Positions 1,072 through 8,119 of a stretch of DNA of 64,000 bases are shown in pieces. Below the pieces are notes generated by a model. The model was not told the DNA's origin. It saw only the letters and a program-made list of their open reading frames with translations, and made no database searches. This stretch comes from Cenarchaeum sp. Its GTDB lineage: Archaea; Thermoproteota; Nitrososphaeria; Nitrososphaerales; Nitrosopumilaceae. Both the position numbers and the translations under genes were made by a program. Within the stretch, counting starts at the first letter, position 1; each line of letters begins with the position of its first letter. The stretch lies in assembly GCA_965242695.1 (NCBI GenBank), contig CBDESU010000001.1, forward strand, positions 704,001 to 768,000. Reading direction: 5' to 3'.

Positions 1072-2733
1072 CTATTCCGCTGCCGCCCTGACGTACTCGC
1101 CCGGGCTGCGCCCGGCGCCGGCCGGCAGCCCCGTGATCCCGCCCTCTAGGCTGTCGGCCGCCATGCCCTTGCCGGCGAGCACGTTGGCAGCCGCCATGGA
1201 CGTGTTGCCGGCCATGCACACGCACAGGACCTTGCCGCCCCCCGCCGCCTCGCGTATCGAGTCGGGCACCTGCCGCGTCGTAATCATCTCCCTGGCCGCG
1301 CTCGCCGTCGGGACGACGATCTTTGACCTGTCGACGCCGAGCGAGGATGCGAGCATCTCTATTCCCTCCTCGCGCGGGGCGTACTGCATGTGGACCCATA
1401 CGATGCGGTCGTACGAGGATGCGGCCGCGGCGGCCTGCTCGACCGACACCTGGGCGGGCGCCGGCGCCCCGGACGACTCGGACCTCTCGCGGATGGCCTT
1501 TTCGTACTTTGCCACCCCGTCGGCGACGATCACGACGAACCTGCGCCCGCCCTTTCCGCTCCCGCCGCCGGCTGCCCCGCCCCCTCCGCCGCCCTCAAAG
1601 CTGGCCATGAGGAGCACGGCGTACAGCGCAAGGGCCGAGCTCTCGCCGATGTCGCGGCCCCTGCCGGCAAAGAACTCTAGCAGGCGCGAGGCCTTTGCAA
1701 AGTCGACCTCGTGCTCGGACGCGTACTCGGACGGCCTGTACATGCGCAGCCCCGACGCGTTGGCCCTCGTGCGTATTCCTGCCACGTCCTGCCCCGCGCT
1801 CGGGAACACGACATGGACGGGCTTTGCAGAGTACCTCTCGGCCGCGTACCGCGCCAGGCCGCCGGACGTGCCGCCGGTGCCGAACGTGCAGACTATCTCG
1901 ACGTCGCCGAGCGTGTACGACGACCCGTCGCCCGGCGAGAGGGCGCGCAGCTGCCCGTCGATCTCGGGGCCCGTCACGGTCCGGTGCGCCTCTATGTTCA
2001 GGTCGTTGTCGTACTGCTCGGGGCAGAACATGCCGTACGCGCCGGCGATGAGCTTTGCCAGGTTGATGACGTCCTGGGCGGCGAGCAGCCTTACGGCCTC
2101 GCCGGCGACGCCGTCGAACGGCGCGGGGTCAAACCCCATGCCCTGCAGCTGCGAGCGGACGTTGTCCGCGGCGGCGCGGGCCGCGATCTCCTCCCTGCTG
2201 CCCTTGATGCCGGGGGCCGGGCAGATGTCCATGTCGAGGTCCATGACGTGGATGCCGGCGCCGCGGAGGTCGGACAGGACTCCCTCCTGGAGCCTGCGCG
2301 AGACGAGGGCTACGACGGGAAGGCCGAGCCTTGCGACTAGGCCGAGCGCGATGCCAAAGTTGCCAGAGGTCGCCTCGATGACGGCCTGCCCGCCGCGCAG
2401 CTTGCCCGTGCGTATGGCATCGTGTATGATGTGGACGGCGGGCCTGACCTTTATCGAGCCCGACGGCAGGCCGCCGTCGAGCTTGCCAAAGACCCTGATG
2501 CCCGTGTCAGACAGGTCTGCATTGAAGACCTTTTCGGCGCACTCTAGCAGGTCGTCGGTCAGGTCGACGAGCGGGGTCGGGCATGCGATCGGGGGCACGC
2601 CGCCCTCGGAATCGGCCCCGGCCGACTCGTCGGGGTGGGGAACCTTTTCGTACATCTGCCCGCGGAACCTTGCGAGCAGCTCTTCGTCGATGGCCGCCTC
2701 GTCGCTCACGGCCGCGCGCGCCTGCGGCCACAT
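1072..2733 (-). CDS. PLP-dependent cysteine synthase-family enzyme fused to a C-terminal rhodanese-like domain
   Basis: SGSIKVR (PLP Lys), EATSGNFG, GTGGT, GESS; C-terminal VLCVCMAGNTS..SLEGG rhodanese motif. Confidence 0.85.
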   Translation of the reverse strand: MWPQARAAVSDEAAIDEELLARFRGQMYEKVPHPDESAGADSEGGVPPIACPTPLVDLTDDLLECAEKVFNADLSDTGIRVFGKLDGGLPSGSIKVRPAVHIIHDAIRTGKLRGGQAVIEATSGNFGIALGLVARLGLPVVALVSRRLQEGVLSDLRGAGIHVMDLDMDICPAPGIKGSREEIAARAAADNVRSQLQGMGFDPAPFDGVAGEAVRLLAAQDVINLAKLIAGAYGMFCPEQYDNDLNIEAHRTVTGPEIDGQLRALSPGDGSSYTLGDVEIVCTFGTGGTSGGLARYAAERYSAKPVHVVFPSAGQDVAGIRTRANASGLRMYRPSEYASEHEVDFAKASRLLEFFAGRGRDIGESSALALYAVLLMASFEGGGGGGAAGGGSGKGGRRFVVIVADGVAKYEKAIRERSESSGAPAPAQVSVEQAAAAASSYDRIVWVHMQYAPREEGIEMLASSLGVDRSKIVVPTASAAREMITTRQVPDSIREAAGGGKVLCVCMAGNTSMAAANVLAGKGMAADSLEGGITGLPAGAGRSPGEYVRAAAE

Positions 2734-2812
2734 TTAGGATTTTACCCGTCAGGGCGGGCCGCGGGGCCGCGCGCAGGAGGGCAGAGGCGGCCCTGCGGCG
2801 TTCCTGCTCTTG

Positions 2813-3085
2813 CTACGCACGAAAGACGTACACATGGCGGGCGGCCGCGCCTCCCTGCCCCGCGGCCCCGCCGGCTGCGCGGTCGCGCCGCATGCCGAGC
2901 CCCGCAAGGCGGTCAGCTACGGCGCGCGCCATCCCGGCGCTGCCCGCGTCCCAGTCTGCCCATGTGGGCGGGCTGCGGCGCTCGCGCCTGCTCTGGCGCG
3001 GGTCGTGGGTCGTCCCGACGCGCCAGCCGCCGTACGAGCCGGACGCGGCGCGCATGGCCTCGAGGATGATCCTCTTCGCAATCAC
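2813..3085 (-). CDS. small hypothetical protein (weak GIY-YIG-like resemblance)
   Basis: GTG 3085 about 25 bp after TTTTTA; WRVGTTHDP...W..W.A.S...AR...L...GM...VYVF pattern. Confidence 0.5.
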   Translation of the reverse strand: MIAKRIILEAMRAASGSYGGWRVGTTHDPRQSRRERRSPPTWADWDAGSAGMARAVADRLAGLGMRRDRAAGGAAGQGGAAARHVYVFRA

Positions 3086-3332
3086 GGCCGGCCCCGCAGG
3101 CGGCGGCGTAAAAACGGTGCGCGGCGCCCCGCCGCCGCCGTCACCCGGGATTCGGGGCGATCGCTGTCGCACGGGCCGTGCGGGGCCAGAACCGCGCTGC
3201 CTGCCGCTCCCGCTCCAGCCTGGACACGCATGGCAGGGCGTGCGGGGGCCAGCCGCGGCCCTGCATGTGCGCCGGATGGCCGCGAACTATGTCGCATCTG
3301 CGCGCGCGCAATCCTGTCCCGGTCCGTGCCGC

Positions 3333-3872
3333 TTACGGCCACGCCGCCCGCCCTGCCTGCGCCGCTATGACTGCCTTGCGAAGCCACATCGCCTTGTTGG
3401 TCTCGTCGAAGCACACGTTGAACTTGTTGAGAAAACCATCCCTGCCCAGCAGAAAGGGCGGGTTGGCGTCACGACTGCGCGACCATTCCGTGTCGGGGGA
3501 AAGCGCCGTGACGACGTCCATGTCCACCCAGTACTTGCCGATCCATGCCTCGGTTCGGAGCTGCACGTGGTACGTGTCCATCTTCCAGCCCACGCCGAAC
3601 GCGGGATGCTTGCCGTCTTCGCTCAGCGCAACGCCCATCTCCTGCACGCCCCACATCGGCACGGACGGCATGGTTGCGCCTGTGTCGATCACCGCCATGC
3701 CCAGAACCATGTCAGAATCATCTGGCAAAGCCACCGCGGGATTCCATACCCTGATCGGAATCGCCGGCGCCAGCGTGTATACGACCTTGCCGCTTGCTGT
3801 CGGACTTTCCATCTTTACGTAGTCCGAGCGCACCTACCCTGGCGGGTACGCATCGAACTCAATCGTAGACAT
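3333..3872 (-). pseudogene. retropepsin-like aspartyl protease, copy 1, with in-frame TAG at codon 13
   Basis: AVIDTGA catalytic motif and FLLGRDGFL motif. ATG 3872 aligns with paralogues, but TGG is TAG at 3834-3836. A restart at GTG 3833 would still give the whole protease domain. Confidence 0.75.
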
Positions 3873-4107
3873 AGTAGGCATCGGGAACCTCTGTATGGTC
3901 GGCGTATATGTAGTGCATGAGCGGCACTCCCTTGCCGGCCTTGGAGCCCTCCTGGTGGGCGCGCCTCGGATCCTTGTCGTGCGCGACAATCTCCCCGTCT
4001 GCCACCGCTATCCACTGGCCGCCGTACCTCTTGTACTCCTCCTCCGACATGTTGCCAAGGAACTCGACATCCTTCATGGGACTTCTATGGAGATCGTTCT
4101 CTGTCAT
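3859..4107 (-). CDS. DUF5678-like small protein, copy 1
   Basis: RYGGQWIAVADGEIVAHDKDP; overlaps the start of the downstream protease. Confidence 0.8.
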   Translation of the reverse strand: MTENDLHRSPMKDVEFLGNMSEEEYKRYGGQWIAVADGEIVAHDKDPRRAHQEGSKAGKGVPLMHYIYADHTEVPDAYYVYD

Positions 4108-4251
4108 GGCGGGCCGTGGCGGAGGTCGATACTTAAGGCTTGCGCAGTGCGGCACGGGAGTATATAAGGAGCAAACGACACTGGCTTGAAATCCTGCACC
4201 TACGCGGCGTTCATGCTTGAACCCATGTAAACCCCCTGGGGCGCGCCGGCC

Positions 4252-4378
4252 TGTGGTCGAGCGACCCCTCAAACGGCATGGGCCAACAGAGCCCTCATGC
4301 TTGAATGGGGCAGTCCGAGCTGCTGTGTTACTGGGCCGTAGAGCCCTGATAGGTGAGTGCAGCTTACGACCGACCACA
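4252..4378 (+). ncRNA. putative IS110 bridge RNA (target-binding and donor-binding loops)
   Basis: 8-bp closing stem (4252-4259/4371-4378). Two loops each carry a GGGC..GCCC hairpin followed by a 9-nt guide: TCATGCTTG (4295-4303) equals left target+core; TGATAGGTG (4347-4355) matches 8/9 the element right end+core. TGTAAA TATA-like box at 4226-4231. Confidence 0.8.
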
Positions 4379-4401
4379 CGTATGATAAAGGGGGTGATAA
4401 T

Positions 4402-5511
4402 GTGAAATATATTGGAATAGACATCGCTAAAGAGACCAACCATGCATGCATCATGGACCGCAAGGGCAAGGTTCTCGACCGCGCCATGTTTGGCAACACG
4501 GCCGAGGGCACACGCAGGTTCCTCAAGGCAGCGCGCAGGGAGCACGGCAAGTTCGTCGTCGGCTGCGAGGCCACGGGGTACATGTGGGCAAAGTTGTGCG
4601 ACATGTGCGCGAAGGAGAATGTGGAGTTCAAGCTTGGCAGTCCGTACAAGATGCGGATCATATGGATGAGCTCCAACAAGAACGACAAGAACGATGCCGA
4701 AAAGATCGCGGATCTGCTAAGGCGCGACGCCTTTCCGGCGTGCCACCTGGGCGACCAGGAGACGCGCGCGCTGAGGGACATGATGCGCGCCATCATCGCA
4801 CTCGTACAGGACAGGACGAAGGTCTGCAACAGGCTTCGCGCCCTGCTCGTAAAGTACGATTTACGCCTAAAAGCGACCAAGATCTACTCGAACAAAGCCA
4901 TTACCCAGCTCCGCGGCACAACGCTAGGCAACCACGTCGACAACACGAACATCCAGCGCCTCGTCAAGCAGCTAGAGTTCTTCAACCGCGAGATCGGCCT
5001 TGCAGAGAAGGATGTTCTCCGCGAGGCGGCAAACTCAAAGTTTGCCCCGACGGTGCGCCGGATCGTCAGCATGACTGGCGTCGACGCGTACTCTGCGCTG
5101 CTGATTTCAGCAGAGCTGGACGGCATAGATCGATTCTCGGATCCCAAGAAGATTATCTCGACGGTAGGCATGTGCCCAAGCGTGCACCAGTCGGGAGACT
5201 CTCTACGCCATGGCGGCATGAAAAAGCTCGACGTTAACCGCAAGCTCAACTGGATAATGATTCAGGTGGCATCAGTGGCAGTCCGCTACGACGACCACCT
5301 GAAGAAGTACTATGAGCACGTCAAGAAGCGACACGGCGGCAAGCACGTGATCGCGGTCACACACGTGGCCAACAAGATGTTGCGGATAATGTGGGCCATG
5401 GAGCGAGACCATACGCTATATTGGTACCGCAACGAAAAGCTGTACCAGAGCAAGCTGGCAAAACTCGACAAGGCGATGCGTTCCGACACGACTCAGAAGA
5501 TCCAGGGGTAG
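4402..5511 (+). CDS. IS110-family transposase/recombinase
   Basis: YIGIDIAK, CEATG and KNDKNDA give the DEDD RuvC-like residues; C-terminal HQSG serine motif. GTG start after a GGGGTGA ribosome-binding site. Confidence 0.95.
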   Translation: MKYIGIDIAKETNHACIMDRKGKVLDRAMFGNTAEGTRRFLKAARREHGKFVVGCEATGYMWAKLCDMCAKENVEFKLGSPYKMRIIWMSSNKNDKNDAEKIADLLRRDAFPACHLGDQETRALRDMMRAIIALVQDRTKVCNRLRALLVKYDLRLKATKIYSNKAITQLRGTTLGNHVDNTNIQRLVKQLEFFNREIGLAEKDVLREAANSKFAPTVRRIVSMTGVDAYSALLISAELDGIDRFSDPKKIISTVGMCPSVHQSGDSLRHGGMKKLDVNRKLNWIMIQVASVAVRYDDHLKKYYEHVKKRHGGKHVIAVTHVANKMLRIMWAMERDHTLYWYRNEKLYQSKLAKLDKAMRSDTTQKIQG

Positions 5512-6122
5512 TTTTTTCCCGACCAGCACCCGAAGCCTGGCCTACCGGCCGGGCCGCATCGAGGCCCCCGGCCCCCGCCGGTTGCCGCCCCCATAGGGGG
5601 CGACGCGAGCAATGTTTAAGAAGGATGCCGCCGGCCGGCCCTCGGTCGCATGACGCAGGACACCGACTTGGCCGGCGCGCCCCTGGGGGTTTCATAGGTG
5701 GCCGCCGAAGCCCGCCATGCGCGCAAGGCGAATCGGCGGTGGTGATCCGACAGGCGCTGTCCGCCGCCGCCGATCGCCGCAAGCGCCTTGTCCGCCATGC
5801 CGCCGAGCGCACTAGTGCCACCGTCCCGCGCTGCCGTCCTCCTATAGTCCCGAGCATAAGTTCCCGACCCTTTTATGTGCATCGATTAGGCGTCGATGCA
5901 GCAAAAAGAGGGTCAAGGACATGTGCTCGTGACTATACTCGGGGCGATCGCCGATGTGCGGGCTGTGCGGGCCAGAGCCGAGCTGTCCGCTGCGCTCGCA
6001 CCCGCCAGCCTAGACACGCATGGCAGGGCGTGCGGGGGCCCGCCGCGGCCCTGCGTGTGCGCCGGATGGTCGCGATCTGTGCCGCATCCATGCACATGGA
6101 ATTCCGATCTGGGTCGTACCAC

Positions 6123-6665
6123 TCACGGCCACGCCGCCCGCCCAGCCTGCGCCTCCATGATGGCCTTGCGAAGCCACATCGCCTTGTTGGTCTCGTCGAA
6201 GCACACGTTGAACTTGTTGAGAAAGCCGTCGCGTCCCAGCAGGAACGGCGGGTTGGCGTCACGCCTGCGCGACCATTCCGTGTCGGGGGAAAGCGCCGCG
6301 ACGACGCCCATATCCACCCAGTACATGCCGATCCACGCCTCGATGCGGACCAGCACGCGGTACGCATCCATCTGCCAGCCCACGCCGAATGCAGGCTGCT
6401 TGCTGTCTTTGCTCAGCACAATGCCAAGCTCCTGCACGCCCCACATCGGCACGGATGGCCTGACTGCGCCTGTGTCGATCACCGCCGTGCCCTGAATTAT
6501 GCTGTAGGCATCCGACAAAGCCACCGCGGGATTTCGCACCCTGATCGGAATCGCCGGCGCCAGTACGTAGGCGACCCTGCCGCTTGCCGTCGGCCTTTCA
6601 ACCTCCGTGTAGTCCGAGCGCACCCACCCTGGCGGGAACGCATCGAAATCAATCTTCGAAGACAT
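6123..6665 (-). CDS. retropepsin-like aspartyl protease, copy 2 (intact)
   Basis: MSSKIDFDAFPPGW...AVIDTGA...FLLGRDGFLNKFNVCFD. Confidence 0.85.
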   Translation of the reverse strand: MSSKIDFDAFPPGWVRSDYTEVERPTASGRVAYVLAPAIPIRVRNPAVALSDAYSIIQGTAVIDTGAVRPSVPMWGVQELGIVLSKDSKQPAFGVGWQMDAYRVLVRIEAWIGMYWVDMGVVAALSPDTEWSRRRDANPPFLLGRDGFLNKFNVCFDETNKAMWLRKAIMEAQAGRAAWP

Positions 6666-6900
6666 AGTAGGCCTCGGGGACTTCCGTATGGTCGGCGTAG
6701 ATGTAGTCCATGTGTGGCACTCCCTTGCCGGCCCTGCAGCCGTCCTGGTGGACGCGCCTCGGATCCTTGCCGTGCGCGACGATCTTCCCGTCTGCCACCG
6801 CCACCCACTGGCCGCCGTACCTCTTGTACTCCTCCTCCGGCATGGTGGCAAGGAACTTGACATCCTTCATGGGGCTCTTATAGAGATCGTCCACTGTCAT
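6649..6900 (-). CDS. DUF5678-like small protein, copy 2
   Basis: RYGGQWVAVADGKIVAHGKDP; overlaps the protease start. Confidence 0.8.
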   Translation of the reverse strand: MTVDDLYKSPMKDVKFLATMPEEEYKRYGGQWVAVADGKIVAHGKDPRRVHQDGCRAGKGVPHMDYIYADHTEVPEAYYVFED

Positions 6901-7338
6901 GCCGGGCCTTGGCGGAGGCCGACACTTAAGGCTTGCGCAGTGCGGCATGGAAGTATATAAGGAGCAAACGACACTGGCTTGAAAATCTGCACCTATGCGG
7001 CGTTCATGCTTGGCCGCCGAAGCCCGCCATGCGCGCAAGGCGAATCGGCGGTGGTGATCCGACAGGCGCTGTCCGCCGCCGCCGATCGCCGCAAGCGCCT
7101 TGTCCGCCATGCCGCCGAGCGCACTAGTGCTACCGTCCCGCGCTGCCGTCCTCCTGCTCGGGGCGATCGCTGTCGCACGGGCCGTGCGGGGCCAGAACCG
7201 CGCTGCCTGCCGCTCCCGCTCCAGCCTGGACACGCATGGCAGGGCGTGCGGGGGCCAGCCGCGGCCCTGCATGTGCGCCGGATGGCCGCGAACTATGTCG
7301 CATCTGCGCGCGCGCAATCCTGTCCCGGTCCGTGCCGC

Positions 7339-7884
7339 TTACGGCCACGCCGCCCGCCCTGCCTGCGCCGCTATGACTGCCTTGCGAAGCCACATCGCCT
7401 TGTTGGTCTCGTCGAAGCACACGTTGAACTTGTTGAGAAAGCCGTCGCGTCCCAGCAGAAAGGGCGGGTTGGCGTCACGACTGCGCGACCATTCCGTGTC
7501 GGGGGAAAGCGCCGTGACGACGTCCATGTCCACCCAATACTTGCCGATCCATGCCTTGATGCAGACCAGCACGCGGTGCGCATCCATCTGCCAGCCCACG
7601 CCAAACGCAGGATGCTTGTCGTCTTCGCTCAGCGCAACGCCCATCTCCTGCACGCCCCACATCGGCACGGACGGCATGGTTGCGCCTGTGTCGATCACCG
7701 CTGTGCCCTGAATTATACTGTAGGCATCCGGCAAAGCCGTAGCCGCGGGGTTTCGAACCCTGATCGGAATCGCCGGCGCCAATACGTAGGCTACCCTGCC
7801 GCTTGCCGTCGGCTTTCCCACCTCCGTGTAGTCCGAGTGCACCCACCCTGGCGGGAACGCATCGAAGTCAATCTTCGAAGATAT
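7339..7884 (-). CDS. retropepsin-like aspartyl protease, copy 3 (aligned start codon is ATA; possibly truncated or pseudogene)
   Basis: DTGA and LLGRD motifs intact. The position equivalent to the paralogues' ATG reads ATA (7882-7884). Confidence 0.75.
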   Translation of the reverse strand: MSSKIDFDAFPPGWVHSDYTEVGKPTASGRVAYVLAPAIPIRVRNPAATALPDAYSIIQGTAVIDTGATMPSVPMWGVQEMGVALSEDDKHPAFGVGWQMDAHRVLVCIKAWIGKYWVDMDVVTALSPDTEWSRSRDANPPFLLGRDGFLNKFNVCFDETNKAMWLRKAVIAAQAGRAAWP

Positions 7885-8119
7885 AGTAGGCAGGTGGGAC
7901 TTCCGTGTGGTCGGCGTAGATGTAGTCCATGAGCGGCACTCCTTTGCCGGCCTCTGATCCCTCCTTGTGGACGCGTTCAGGATCCTTCCCATGCGCGACG
8001 ATCTCCCCGTCGGCCACAGCCACCCACTGGCCGCCGTACCTCTTGTACTCCTCCTCCGGCATGGTGGCAAGGAACTTGACATCCTTCATGGGGCTCCTGT
8101 AGCGGTCGTTCTCTGCCAT
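7868..8119 (-). CDS. DUF5678-like small protein, copy 3
   Basis: RYGGQWVAVADGEIVAHGKDP. Confidence 0.8.
   Translation of the reverse strand: MAENDRYRSPMKDVKFLATMPEEEYKRYGGQWVAVADGEIVAHGKDPERVHKEGSEAGKGVPLMDYIYADHTEVPPAYYIFED

Follow-up and report, generated by a model that had tools for sequence, protein, structure and literature searches.

Our analysis of a 64,000-nt stretch of a Cenarchaeum sp. genome (contig CBDESU010000001.1 of assembly GCA_965242695.1, positions 704,001 to 768,000; this whole stretch is called the window below) identified positions 4220-5700 as an intact archaeal element of the IS110 family of insertion sequences (IS),; its left end encodes a bridge RNA of about 125 nt, just ahead of the gene for a 369-aa DEDD/serine recombinase and in the same orientation. 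We put the probability of this reading at about 0.92. The ends of the element, the structure of the RNA and its covariation, the covariation of four guide segments with their DNA partners, natural retargeting among close relatives and the conserved catalytic motifs of the recombinase were all computed here. Transcription of the RNA, its binding by the recombinase, formation of an excised circle and strand exchange by the same chemistry would be expected by analogy with experimentally studied relatives. An IS110 element with a bispecific bridge RNA in its left end had been proposed in a first-pass annotation made from the sequence alone. All strings and coordinates given there agree with the sequence, and the proposal is borne out by Pfam and NCBIfam models of the protein, by structural covariation, by the four covarying guides and by the retargeting events.

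The ends at 4220 and 5700 are fixed because an empty paralogous site exists at 7004-7020, where the target reads ttcatgcttg/gccgcc without interruption (a slash within a sequence marks the insertion point). Comparison of this site with the occupied one sets the left boundary after ...ttcatgcttg and the right boundary before gccgccgaag..., so that the insert on the plus strand comprises 1481 bp including the right-hand TG core at 5699-5700. TG is the sole sequence common to both junctions, with no further target duplication, and a TG core, as named in the first-pass annotation, is present in essentially all relatives. The nonamer TCATGCTTG is found three times in the window, in the left flank (4211), in the RNA loop (4295) and in the empty site (7004); dinucleotide shuffles gave an expected count of 0.34, and a count of three was reached in 0/100 of them. 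A joint in contigs of public runs also jumps 1481 bases. This empty-site form (4217 joined to 5699) is present in three of four public runs, all four being contigs, at a 90% threshold; it is not counted here as excision or polymorphism, since the paralogous empty site, about 95% identical over the flanks, would give the same joint. No circle junction was seen in these runs, whose contigs could reveal neither such a junction nor the ends of transcripts. The features of the element's ends and targets are the following:

4211-4219, plus strand: left target TCATGCTTG, with the TG core at 4218-4219; identical to the guide at 4295-4303 and uninterrupted at 7004-7012.
4220-4228, plus strand: left-end terminal extension AACCCATGT, whose first six bases are the right donor site for the right donor guide.
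4229-4251, plus strand: left sub-terminal inverted repeat of 23 bp, 22/23 against the reverse complement of 5670-5692.
5512-5669, plus strand: right non-coding region, G+C-rich, in which no guide function was found.
5670-5692, plus strand: right sub-terminal inverted repeat, 22/23 match to the left repeat.
5692-5700, plus strand: right-end terminus TCATAGGTG, the left donor site with the TG core.
5701-5708, plus strand: right target flank GCCGCCGA, matching the right target guide at 3/8 in the family register; CCG fits with a one-base slip.
7004-7020, plus strand: paralogous empty target ttcatgcttg/gccgccg (gcggcgttcatgcttg/gccgccgaagcc), the same sequence without insert, 2.8 kb downstream.

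The sub-terminal repeats, correctly described beforehand as being of IS1111 type (23 bp, 22/23 matching), sit 9 bp (left) and 8 bp (right) inward of the element ends. Around the element, window positions 2580-8100 hold a tandem array of paralogous gene pairs, each with a minus-strand open reading frame of about 246 aa and a small upstream gene, which repeat at about 3333-4110, 6123-6900 and 7339-8082. The empty copy of the target is available because the intergenic sequence of this array recurs.

Between the left repeat and the transposase gene lies the RNA:

4252-4378, plus strand: bridge RNA gene, 127 nt, with a closing stem at 4252-4259 / 4371-4378; described by the covariance model R1.
4265-4310, plus strand: target-binding loop, with the stem CCCC 4265-4268 / GGGG 4307-4310 and a hairpin at 4280-4294.
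4318-4364, plus strand: donor-binding loop, with the stem agctgc 4318-4323 / gcagct 4359-4364 and a hairpin at 4333-4346.

In the closing stem, tgtggtcg (4252-4259) pairs with cgaccaca (4371-4378), and all eight pairs covary. The 5' side of the target loop consists of U4269, the right target guide CAAACGG (4270-4276), the core complement CA (4277-4278) and U4279; the hairpin stem GGGC 4280-4283 / GCCC 4291-4294 follows, and the 3' side carries the left target guide UCAUGCUUG (4295-4303) and then AAU (4304-4306). The donor loop has the right guide UGUGUU (4324-4329), the hairpin stem GGGC 4333-4336 / GCCC 4343-4346 and the left guide UGAUAGGUG (4347-4355). In the window, R1 gives a single match at 4254-4380 (110.8 bits, E 6e-26).

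Comparative analysis returned the architecture that had been drawn from the single sequence, two loops under an 8-bp closing stem. RNAalifold, applied to a MAFFT alignment of 24 left ends, predicted five helices, namely the closing stem, CCCC/GGGG with its hairpin and GCUGC/GCAGC with the second hairpin, and 17 of the 24 pairs showed compensatory double changes. Standard pairs fill 94.7% of 569 cells, compared with 34-52% when the 3' partners are slid by one to three columns, and 0/500 shuffles of the 24-sequence structure attained the observed value on any of five measures. The GCUGC/GCAGC stem is neither supported nor contradicted, because it is nearly invariant. The minimum free energy fold of 4250-4380 (-53 kcal/mol, z = -2.05) contains the closing stem as well as the stem and hairpin of each loop; it additionally pairs gcatg with catgc inside loop 1, the alternative against which the first-pass annotation had cautioned. 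When the whole left end (z = -1.80) or right end (z = -1.18) is folded as a single sequence, the result is uninformative because the DNA is G+C-rich, and it is the comparative structure alone that is convincing. A scan of 3800-6200 against Rfam, with E values up to 10, gave no family covering the bridge RNA; a minus-strand match to the MS2 hairpin was dismissed as chance, at 19.6 bits against a gathering score of 40.

The helices contain about 34 G-U cells (sum of per-pair counts), which would be A-C mismatches on the opposite strand; the folding strand is therefore that of the transposase, the plus strand. This bears on whether an RNA is involved at all, since base-pair covariation alone cannot separate RNA from single-stranded DNA of the same strand, and the left-end matches might act as DNA, read by the protein or through single-stranded DNA pairing in the manner of the IS200/IS605 guide sequences. 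We consider this very improbable: the G-U cells are tolerated on the plus strand only, and dependence on RNA has been shown biochemically for IS621 (PMC11208160) as well as for four IS1111 elements and one IS110 element (PMC11187229). Moreover, two internal loops, each with top- and bottom-strand guides that overlap at the core, are the architecture of those RNAs.

To read the guides across the family, we combined two sets of loci. The first comprised 30 loci from a protein search and 40 further regions; at E <= 1e-30, this search had matches in 54 of 401 genomes of the same class and in 41 of 223 of the same family; G283, a genome flagged as unpublished, is included in this tally. The second set consisted of 72 stretches from an exact-pattern scan of genome contigs with the conserved part of the RNA. 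R1 found 64 homologous RNAs in the first 72 loci and 72 in the 72 further loci, a covariance model being one of the checks suggested beforehand. Nearly all stretches of the second set lie in records titled Nitrosopumilaceae, Nitrosopumilus, Cenarchaeum or Nitrososphaerota. One lies in a metagenome-assembled genome (MAG) of Olegusella and is not confirmed by R1. Another stands in a record titled Candidatus Poribacteria bacterium, also a MAG (locus L145, 6996-7122, R1 67 bits), and could be due to horizontal transfer or to a mis-binned archaeal contig. The same kind of scan for close relatives of the RNA in metagenome contigs gave 0 stretches.

The four loop sides were cut from the R1 alignments, and the ends of the elements were defined without the target guides: regular expressions for the conserved left-end motif gave the left ends, and a regular expression for the conserved terminus ...CAYRRRTG gave the right ends. 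Locus L073, whose RNA match is cut at its 5' end, was excluded from all guide counts. L018 has no left boundary (contig end), L041 and L010 have no convincing right end, and in L020, L052, L069, L021 and L079 the right end is absent within the locus or interrupted. In the second set, 19 of 72 matches had no recognisable left-end motif within reach, and 28 of the remaining 53 were duplicates, either of earlier events or of one another, leaving 25 new events. Guide counts were taken after identical guide/site combinations had been dropped, and were compared with 10000 permutations of guide types.

The alignments revealed one register throughout the family. On the 5' side of loop 1, a U is followed by a right target guide of up to 8 nt, by CA (sometimes CG, UG or UA) and by a second U; the 3' side holds a left target guide of 7-9 nt ending in UG, then AAU. 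In loop 2, a right donor guide of 5-6 nt occupies the 5' side and a left donor guide ending in UG the 3' side. Both left guides end in UG, and the right target guide is followed by CA, the complement of the core, by the wobble-capable CG or UG, or in a few cases by UA. As had been noticed for the window element, the right guide (4270-4278) precedes the left one (4295-4303), and this order holds in all aligned relatives. Matches of the guides to their DNA partners were as follows:

Left target guide against left flank: 256/378; permutation mean 97, maximum 132; 0/10000 permutations as high.
Right target guide against right flank: 241/416; permutation mean 110, maximum 154; 0/10000 permutations as high.
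Left donor guide against right end: 34/35, over 7 guide/end combinations with 6 guide types; 13/10000 permutations as high.
Right donor guide (first 5 bases) against left-end bases 2-6: 102/135; permutation mean 61, maximum 86.

The first-pass annotation had named covariation of the loop segment with the flanks of homologous elements as a way to check its proposal, and the left target guide shows it, with 256 matches where permutation gives 97. The 25 new, non-overlapping insertion events replicate this result (104/125 against a mean of 46). For the donor guides, the number of independent changes is small, because donor types are few and clade-bound: the left donor guides are AUAGGUG, AUAGAUG, AUGGAUG, ACAGGUG, ACAGAUG and AUGAGUG. 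The last seven bases of this guide recur downstream of the transposase gene, at the element end, in 46 of 64 RNAs. The three bases that follow the left target guide (AAU, ACU or GAU; window 4304-4306) tend to equal the start of the left end (AA., AC. or GA.), and with such a match the RNA would match the integrated left junction two to three bases past the core. We did not retain a handshake-like guide on this account, as the AC change is limited to one clade and the GA case is broken by L031/L063.

The most direct evidence for guide function comes, in our view, from natural retargeting read from the sequences: elements that are 96-98.5% identical over the 1050 nt after the RNA carry different guides and occupy correspondingly different sites. 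L017 and L046-48, at 98.4-98.5% identity over these 1050 nt, are set apart by the left guide and its flank alone, the guides UUUUUUGUG and UUGGUCGUG standing beside the flanks AGATTTGTG and (T/C)ACGTCGTG, respectively; the right guide is unchanged, and CCTAA-like right flanks are retained. L032 and L067 (98.4% identical) differ in both guides and in both flanks. Further retargeted pairs are L043 and L045, as well as L030 and L061/62/68.

In the window copy, the left target guide TCATGCTTG (4295-4303) is identical to the left flank with its TG core (9/9), and the left donor guide TGATAGGTG (4347-4355) matches the right end with the core, tcataggtg (5692-5700), at 8/9; both relations had been recognised in the first-pass annotation. 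On the right-hand side, its assignments needed correction. CGGC at 4274-4277 is indeed the reverse complement of gccg at 5701-5704, but as a guide it lies one base off the family register, in which 4270-4276 are followed by CA. TGTT does not hold as the right donor guide; the register gives UGUGUU at 4324-4329, which pairs with AACCCA at 5/6. The right target guide CAAACGG with CA at 4277-4278 predicts TG/CCGTTTG.

Other copies in the same genome show the left half-site again. A second copy on contig 1 (locus L153, 1340322-1347258), 99.7-100% identical to the first, has the left flank ...cccCATGCTTG/ and the right flank /CCGGCGTT. Its left flank matches the guide at 8/9; copies with the same loop at unrelated sites had been named in advance as the finding that would speak against guide function. 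Two other elements interrupt this second copy: an IS66-family element of 2278 bp, which has terminal inverted repeats of 24 bp and a target overlap of 10 bp, and a 3167-bp IS630-like element between a TA duplication, which encodes a DDE_3 transposase and another protein that matches DDE_Tnp_1 weakly. On contig 2, ATGgTTG, the same left half-site, stands directly before a left-end remnant, and the genome also holds a solo right end. Element B, a diverged relative on contig 2, is 41% identical in its transposase and 73% in its left end. The right flanks seen are GCCGCCGA at the window copy, CCGGCGTT at the second copy, CCTGCACC at the solo right end and CCTTGCAC at a loose contig end in one public run. 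Three of these four begin with CC, and the right half-site is therefore short and weakly matched; the target half-sites of the window element would be CATGCTTG/CC.

Several observations weigh against our interpretation. The right target guide fits the window copy at only 3/8 in the family register, and the right flank of the second copy also at 3/8, there contiguously beside the core (CCGgcg). Next to the right donor guide, no bases complementary to the core were found. The genome contains 13 unoccupied CATGCTTGCCG sites and two copies of the element, one of them broken; the element may show little activity, or its choice of sites may depend on more than we have defined. Across the family, the fit is poor in L010 (2/7), in L151 and L109 (2/7), on the left of element B on contig 2 (3/7), in L083, L091 and L145 (3/7) and in L089, and the right flank of L049 fits at 0/8; several of the poorly fitting events are visibly decayed copies. 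In L015 and in L061/62/68, the right fit needs a one-base slip. Furthermore, right ends were chosen by hand, by position, at 16 loci with several candidates, and two degenerate ends were added by hand.

Part of this could be accounted for if the RNA family is real and the window copy is an inactive relic, whose good left and poor right match records an old or off-target insertion. Such a history is unlikely in our estimate but carries appreciable weight: there are just two copies, one of which was broken by the IS66-family and IS630-like elements, 13 apparently better sites stand unoccupied, and the right target guide fits at 3/8. Against it, the frame of 369 aa is open and has its catalytic motifs, and the two copies are 99.7-100% identical. 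Moreover, contigs of one public run hold a further right junction, 5700 followed by CCTTGCAC, which is missing from this genome.

A second possibility concerns the place of the guide RNA. In the classical IS1111 manner, it would be encoded in the 189-bp right non-coding region, and the structure in the left end would be no more than a leader at the 5' end of the transposase mRNA or an element that regulates it. The long sub-terminal inverted repeats would suit such an arrangement, the right region (5512-5700) is as long as the left one, ISHvo10 is listed in PMC11187229 among elements with long non-coding regions at both ends, and the 8-mer CCGAAGCC at 5530 equals part of the right flank. However, this 8-mer is G+C-rich, runs in the sense in which a right guide would not pair, and does not recur in the different right flank of the second copy. 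Only G+C-rich 7-8-mers match when the right region is compared with the right flank, and, the inverted repeat itself apart, the right region has no match of at least 7 bases to the left target or the donor ends. It folds no better than shuffles (z = -1.18). The distance from the RNA start to the right end ranges from about 1240 to 1670 nt across the family, which suggests a right region of variable length, and each of the four covarying guide segments belongs to the left end. We therefore regard a guide RNA in the right region as highly improbable.

With the guide RNA in the left end, the element would work as follows. The RNA is a three-way junction, with two internal loops lying next to each other under the 8-bp closing stem. 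In the target loop, the left target guide after the hairpin is identical to the top strand of the left flank with TG, and would thus pair with the bottom strand. The donor loop, on the 3' side and of the same build, would read the element's own left and right ends, which would abut in the excised circle as ...TCATAGG-TG-AACCCA..., i.e. ...TTTCATAGG-TG-AACCCATG... By analogy with IS621 and the IS1111/IS110 seekRNAs, a complex of recombinase and RNA would align this donor junction with the target at the TG core and exchange strands, and insertion would proceed without target duplication.

Both the right terminus (TTTTAACATAG, e.g. TTTTAACATAGGTG in relatives; window 5690-5700) and left-end positions 7-13 (4226-4233) are A/T-rich and TATA-like, in DNA that is otherwise G+C-rich. 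It is a speculation, with a geometry that fits only roughly, that one of these two, about 25-30 nt upstream of the closing stem across the circle junction, serves as a TATA box of the archaeal kind. In that case the RNA would be driven only from the circle junction, and its expression would depend on excision.

The RNA lies upstream of the transposase, as had been stated, with 4252-4378 preceding the gene:

4402-5511, plus strand: transposase gene, GTG start, 369 aa, with GGGGGTGA ahead at 4390-4397.

The protein contains the Pfam domains DEDD_Tnp_IS110 (1.5e-30) and Transposase_20 (5.7e-16), both above their gathering scores, and with 205.8 bits it passes the cut-off (140) of the NCBIfam model NF033542, which is named 'IS110 family RNA-guided transposase'. 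Among solved structures, its single match is the IS621 transposase, a weak one (phmmer E 1.5e-3, partial alignment), in which the GID, EATG, DxxD and SG motifs line up. By this alignment, and no structure, the catalytic residues would be D7 (GID), E56 (CEATG), D95/D98 (NDKND) and S264 (QSG). We tried the motif GL-P----SG as a discriminator between IS1111 and IS110 and discarded it, because IS621 carries it too in the phmmer alignment. A search for homologous proteins returned 42, relatives at 73-83% identity among them; a protein search of genome and metagenome contig collections for relatives of the transposase found none. The best named relative is ISHvo10 (29.7% identity, E 1e-29), and the IS4321/IS5075 transposase is 24% identical over 96% of the length (E 4e-11, a pairwise score). 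The same genome has a second, distant IS110-family transposase gene on contig 1 at 683234-684202 (25% identity, E 3e-25). In other genomes, many relatives of the transposase gene carry one in-frame TAG (e.g. in G281, G129, G319 and G036).

The host genome comprises 3.89 Mb in two contigs with 67-68% G+C, and its single small-subunit ribosomal RNA fits the archaeal model (1450 bits) better than the bacterial one (1086 bits). To our knowledge, genetic tools are scarce for ammonia-oxidising archaea (Nitrosopumilaceae), and a native programmable recombinase with an RNA of about 125 nt and a protein of 369 aa could therefore be a starting point. The mechanism as such is not new, because bridge RNAs and seekRNAs have been established for bacterial IS110 and IS1111 elements and mined at scale: Durrant et al. 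predicted bridge RNAs in most ISfinder entries (PMC11208160), and a 2026 preprint (10.64898/2026.10.21.760802) reports 86 models and 32,190 bridge RNAs. Our full-text literature search found no description specific to thaumarchaeal or haloarchaeal bridge RNAs; in none of the papers listed did 'bridge RNA' occur together with thaumarchaeal names, and a 2012 paper mentions IS110 once. The RNA family may already be present, unnamed, in published catalogues. What our analysis adds is a clean archaeal family with four readable guides, visible retargeting at 96-98.5% identity and features of both groups. The family also bears on the link between archaeal IS110 recombinases and Nop5 proposed in a bioRxiv preprint (10.1101/2024.06.21.599552).

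The best-studied bridge RNA and recombinase are those of IS621, a member of the IS110 group (Durrant et al. 2024, PMC11208160; Hiraizumi et al. 2024, PMC11208158). Durrant et al. defined the four guides, and in IS621 the core belongs to each pairing (PMC11208160). The window element shares with IS621 the DEDD and serine recombinase with the same two Pfam domains, the lack of a target duplication, the position of the RNA in the left end upstream of the gene and the two internal loops for target and donor. It differs in its very distant protein (phmmer E = 1.5e-3, partial alignment), in the TG core, which is CT in IS621, in the sub-terminal repeats, which are 23 bp here (about 9-12 bp in relatives) and 2-3 bp in IS621, in the two loops placed side by side under one closing stem, and in its right donor guide, for which no adjacent core complement was found. 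The RNA is also shorter: the bridge RNA of IS621 has 177 nt, while the one described here has about 125 nt.

In general, bridge RNAs are found in the left end in the IS110 group and in the right end in the IS1111 group, whose sub-terminal repeats are given as 7-17 bp (PMC11208160). Like IS1111-group elements such as ISEc11, ISPa11 and ISKpn4 (PMC11187229), the window element has sub-terminal inverted repeats and short terminal extensions, although 23 bp exceeds the quoted range of 7-17 bp (PMC11208160). A further resemblance to this group is that its transposase aligns with that of IS4321/IS5075 over nearly the full length. IS1111-type seekRNAs carry the top-strand match first and the bottom-strand match 3' of it, an order that is reversed in the IS110-type ISEc21 (PMC11187229). 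The RNA of the window element agrees with the seekRNAs of IS1111 type in this respect; unlike ISEc21, it has the right guide ahead of the hairpin and the left guide behind it in each loop. In contrast to the IS1111 group, where the RNA is encoded downstream of the transposase gene, the window element has it upstream, and whereas many IS1111 donor sites are multi-loop (PMC11208160), both loops here are plain internal loops. The account in PMC11187229 mentions exceptions: an upstream non-coding region in ISMtsp17, given there without guide analysis, and long non-coding regions at both ends in ISHvo10 and ISAcp5.

ISHvo10/ISHvo9, from the plasmid pHV4 of Haloferax volcanii, resemble the window element in their TG core and in their sub-terminal repeats, which are 12 bp. 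Four copies on pHV4 (L152 = NC_013966.1 664-2122; L154-L157), which we read by eye, are inserted at CGTGCTG/AATAYAG, and their right end finishes with CCATAGGTG. The upstream non-coding region of ISHvo10 contains CTGTATT, the reverse complement of the right flank AATACAG, then a hairpin and, after it, GGTGCTG followed by ACT, which may be compared with the left junction CGTGCTG/ACT; near its 3' end it contains GCATAGGTG, to be compared with the right end CCATAGGTG. From these strings, ISHvo10/ISHvo9 also seem to encode a guide RNA upstream, with the right guide before the left one. In contrast to the window RNA, the donor segments of ISHvo10 look outermost and the target loop nested. R1, run on ISHvo10 with filters off, gave nothing credible (best match 10.6 bits, on the wrong strand). 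On the basis of these copies, an upstream RNA and this guide order seem to be common to a wider archaeal group.

One could tentatively go further and see in the elements from Nitrosopumilaceae-titled records, together with ISHvo10/ISHvo9, a third architectural class of bridge-recombinase element, a proposal that we think possible but doubtful. Equally tentative is the set of features that would define it, namely an upstream RNA, the guide order and long sub-terminal repeats of IS1111, and an RNA of about 125 nt forming a three-way junction. If true, these would be RNA-programmable recombinases native to archaea, for which changes of a few bases suffice as retargeting in nature. Overall, our comparison describes a known mechanism in a new variant, ordinary in its principle and distinctive in its layout and host, with unusually clear natural reprogramming; the layout is a hybrid, in which an upstream RNA, as in the IS110 group, is combined with the long sub-terminal repeats and the right-before-left guide order of the IS1111 group.

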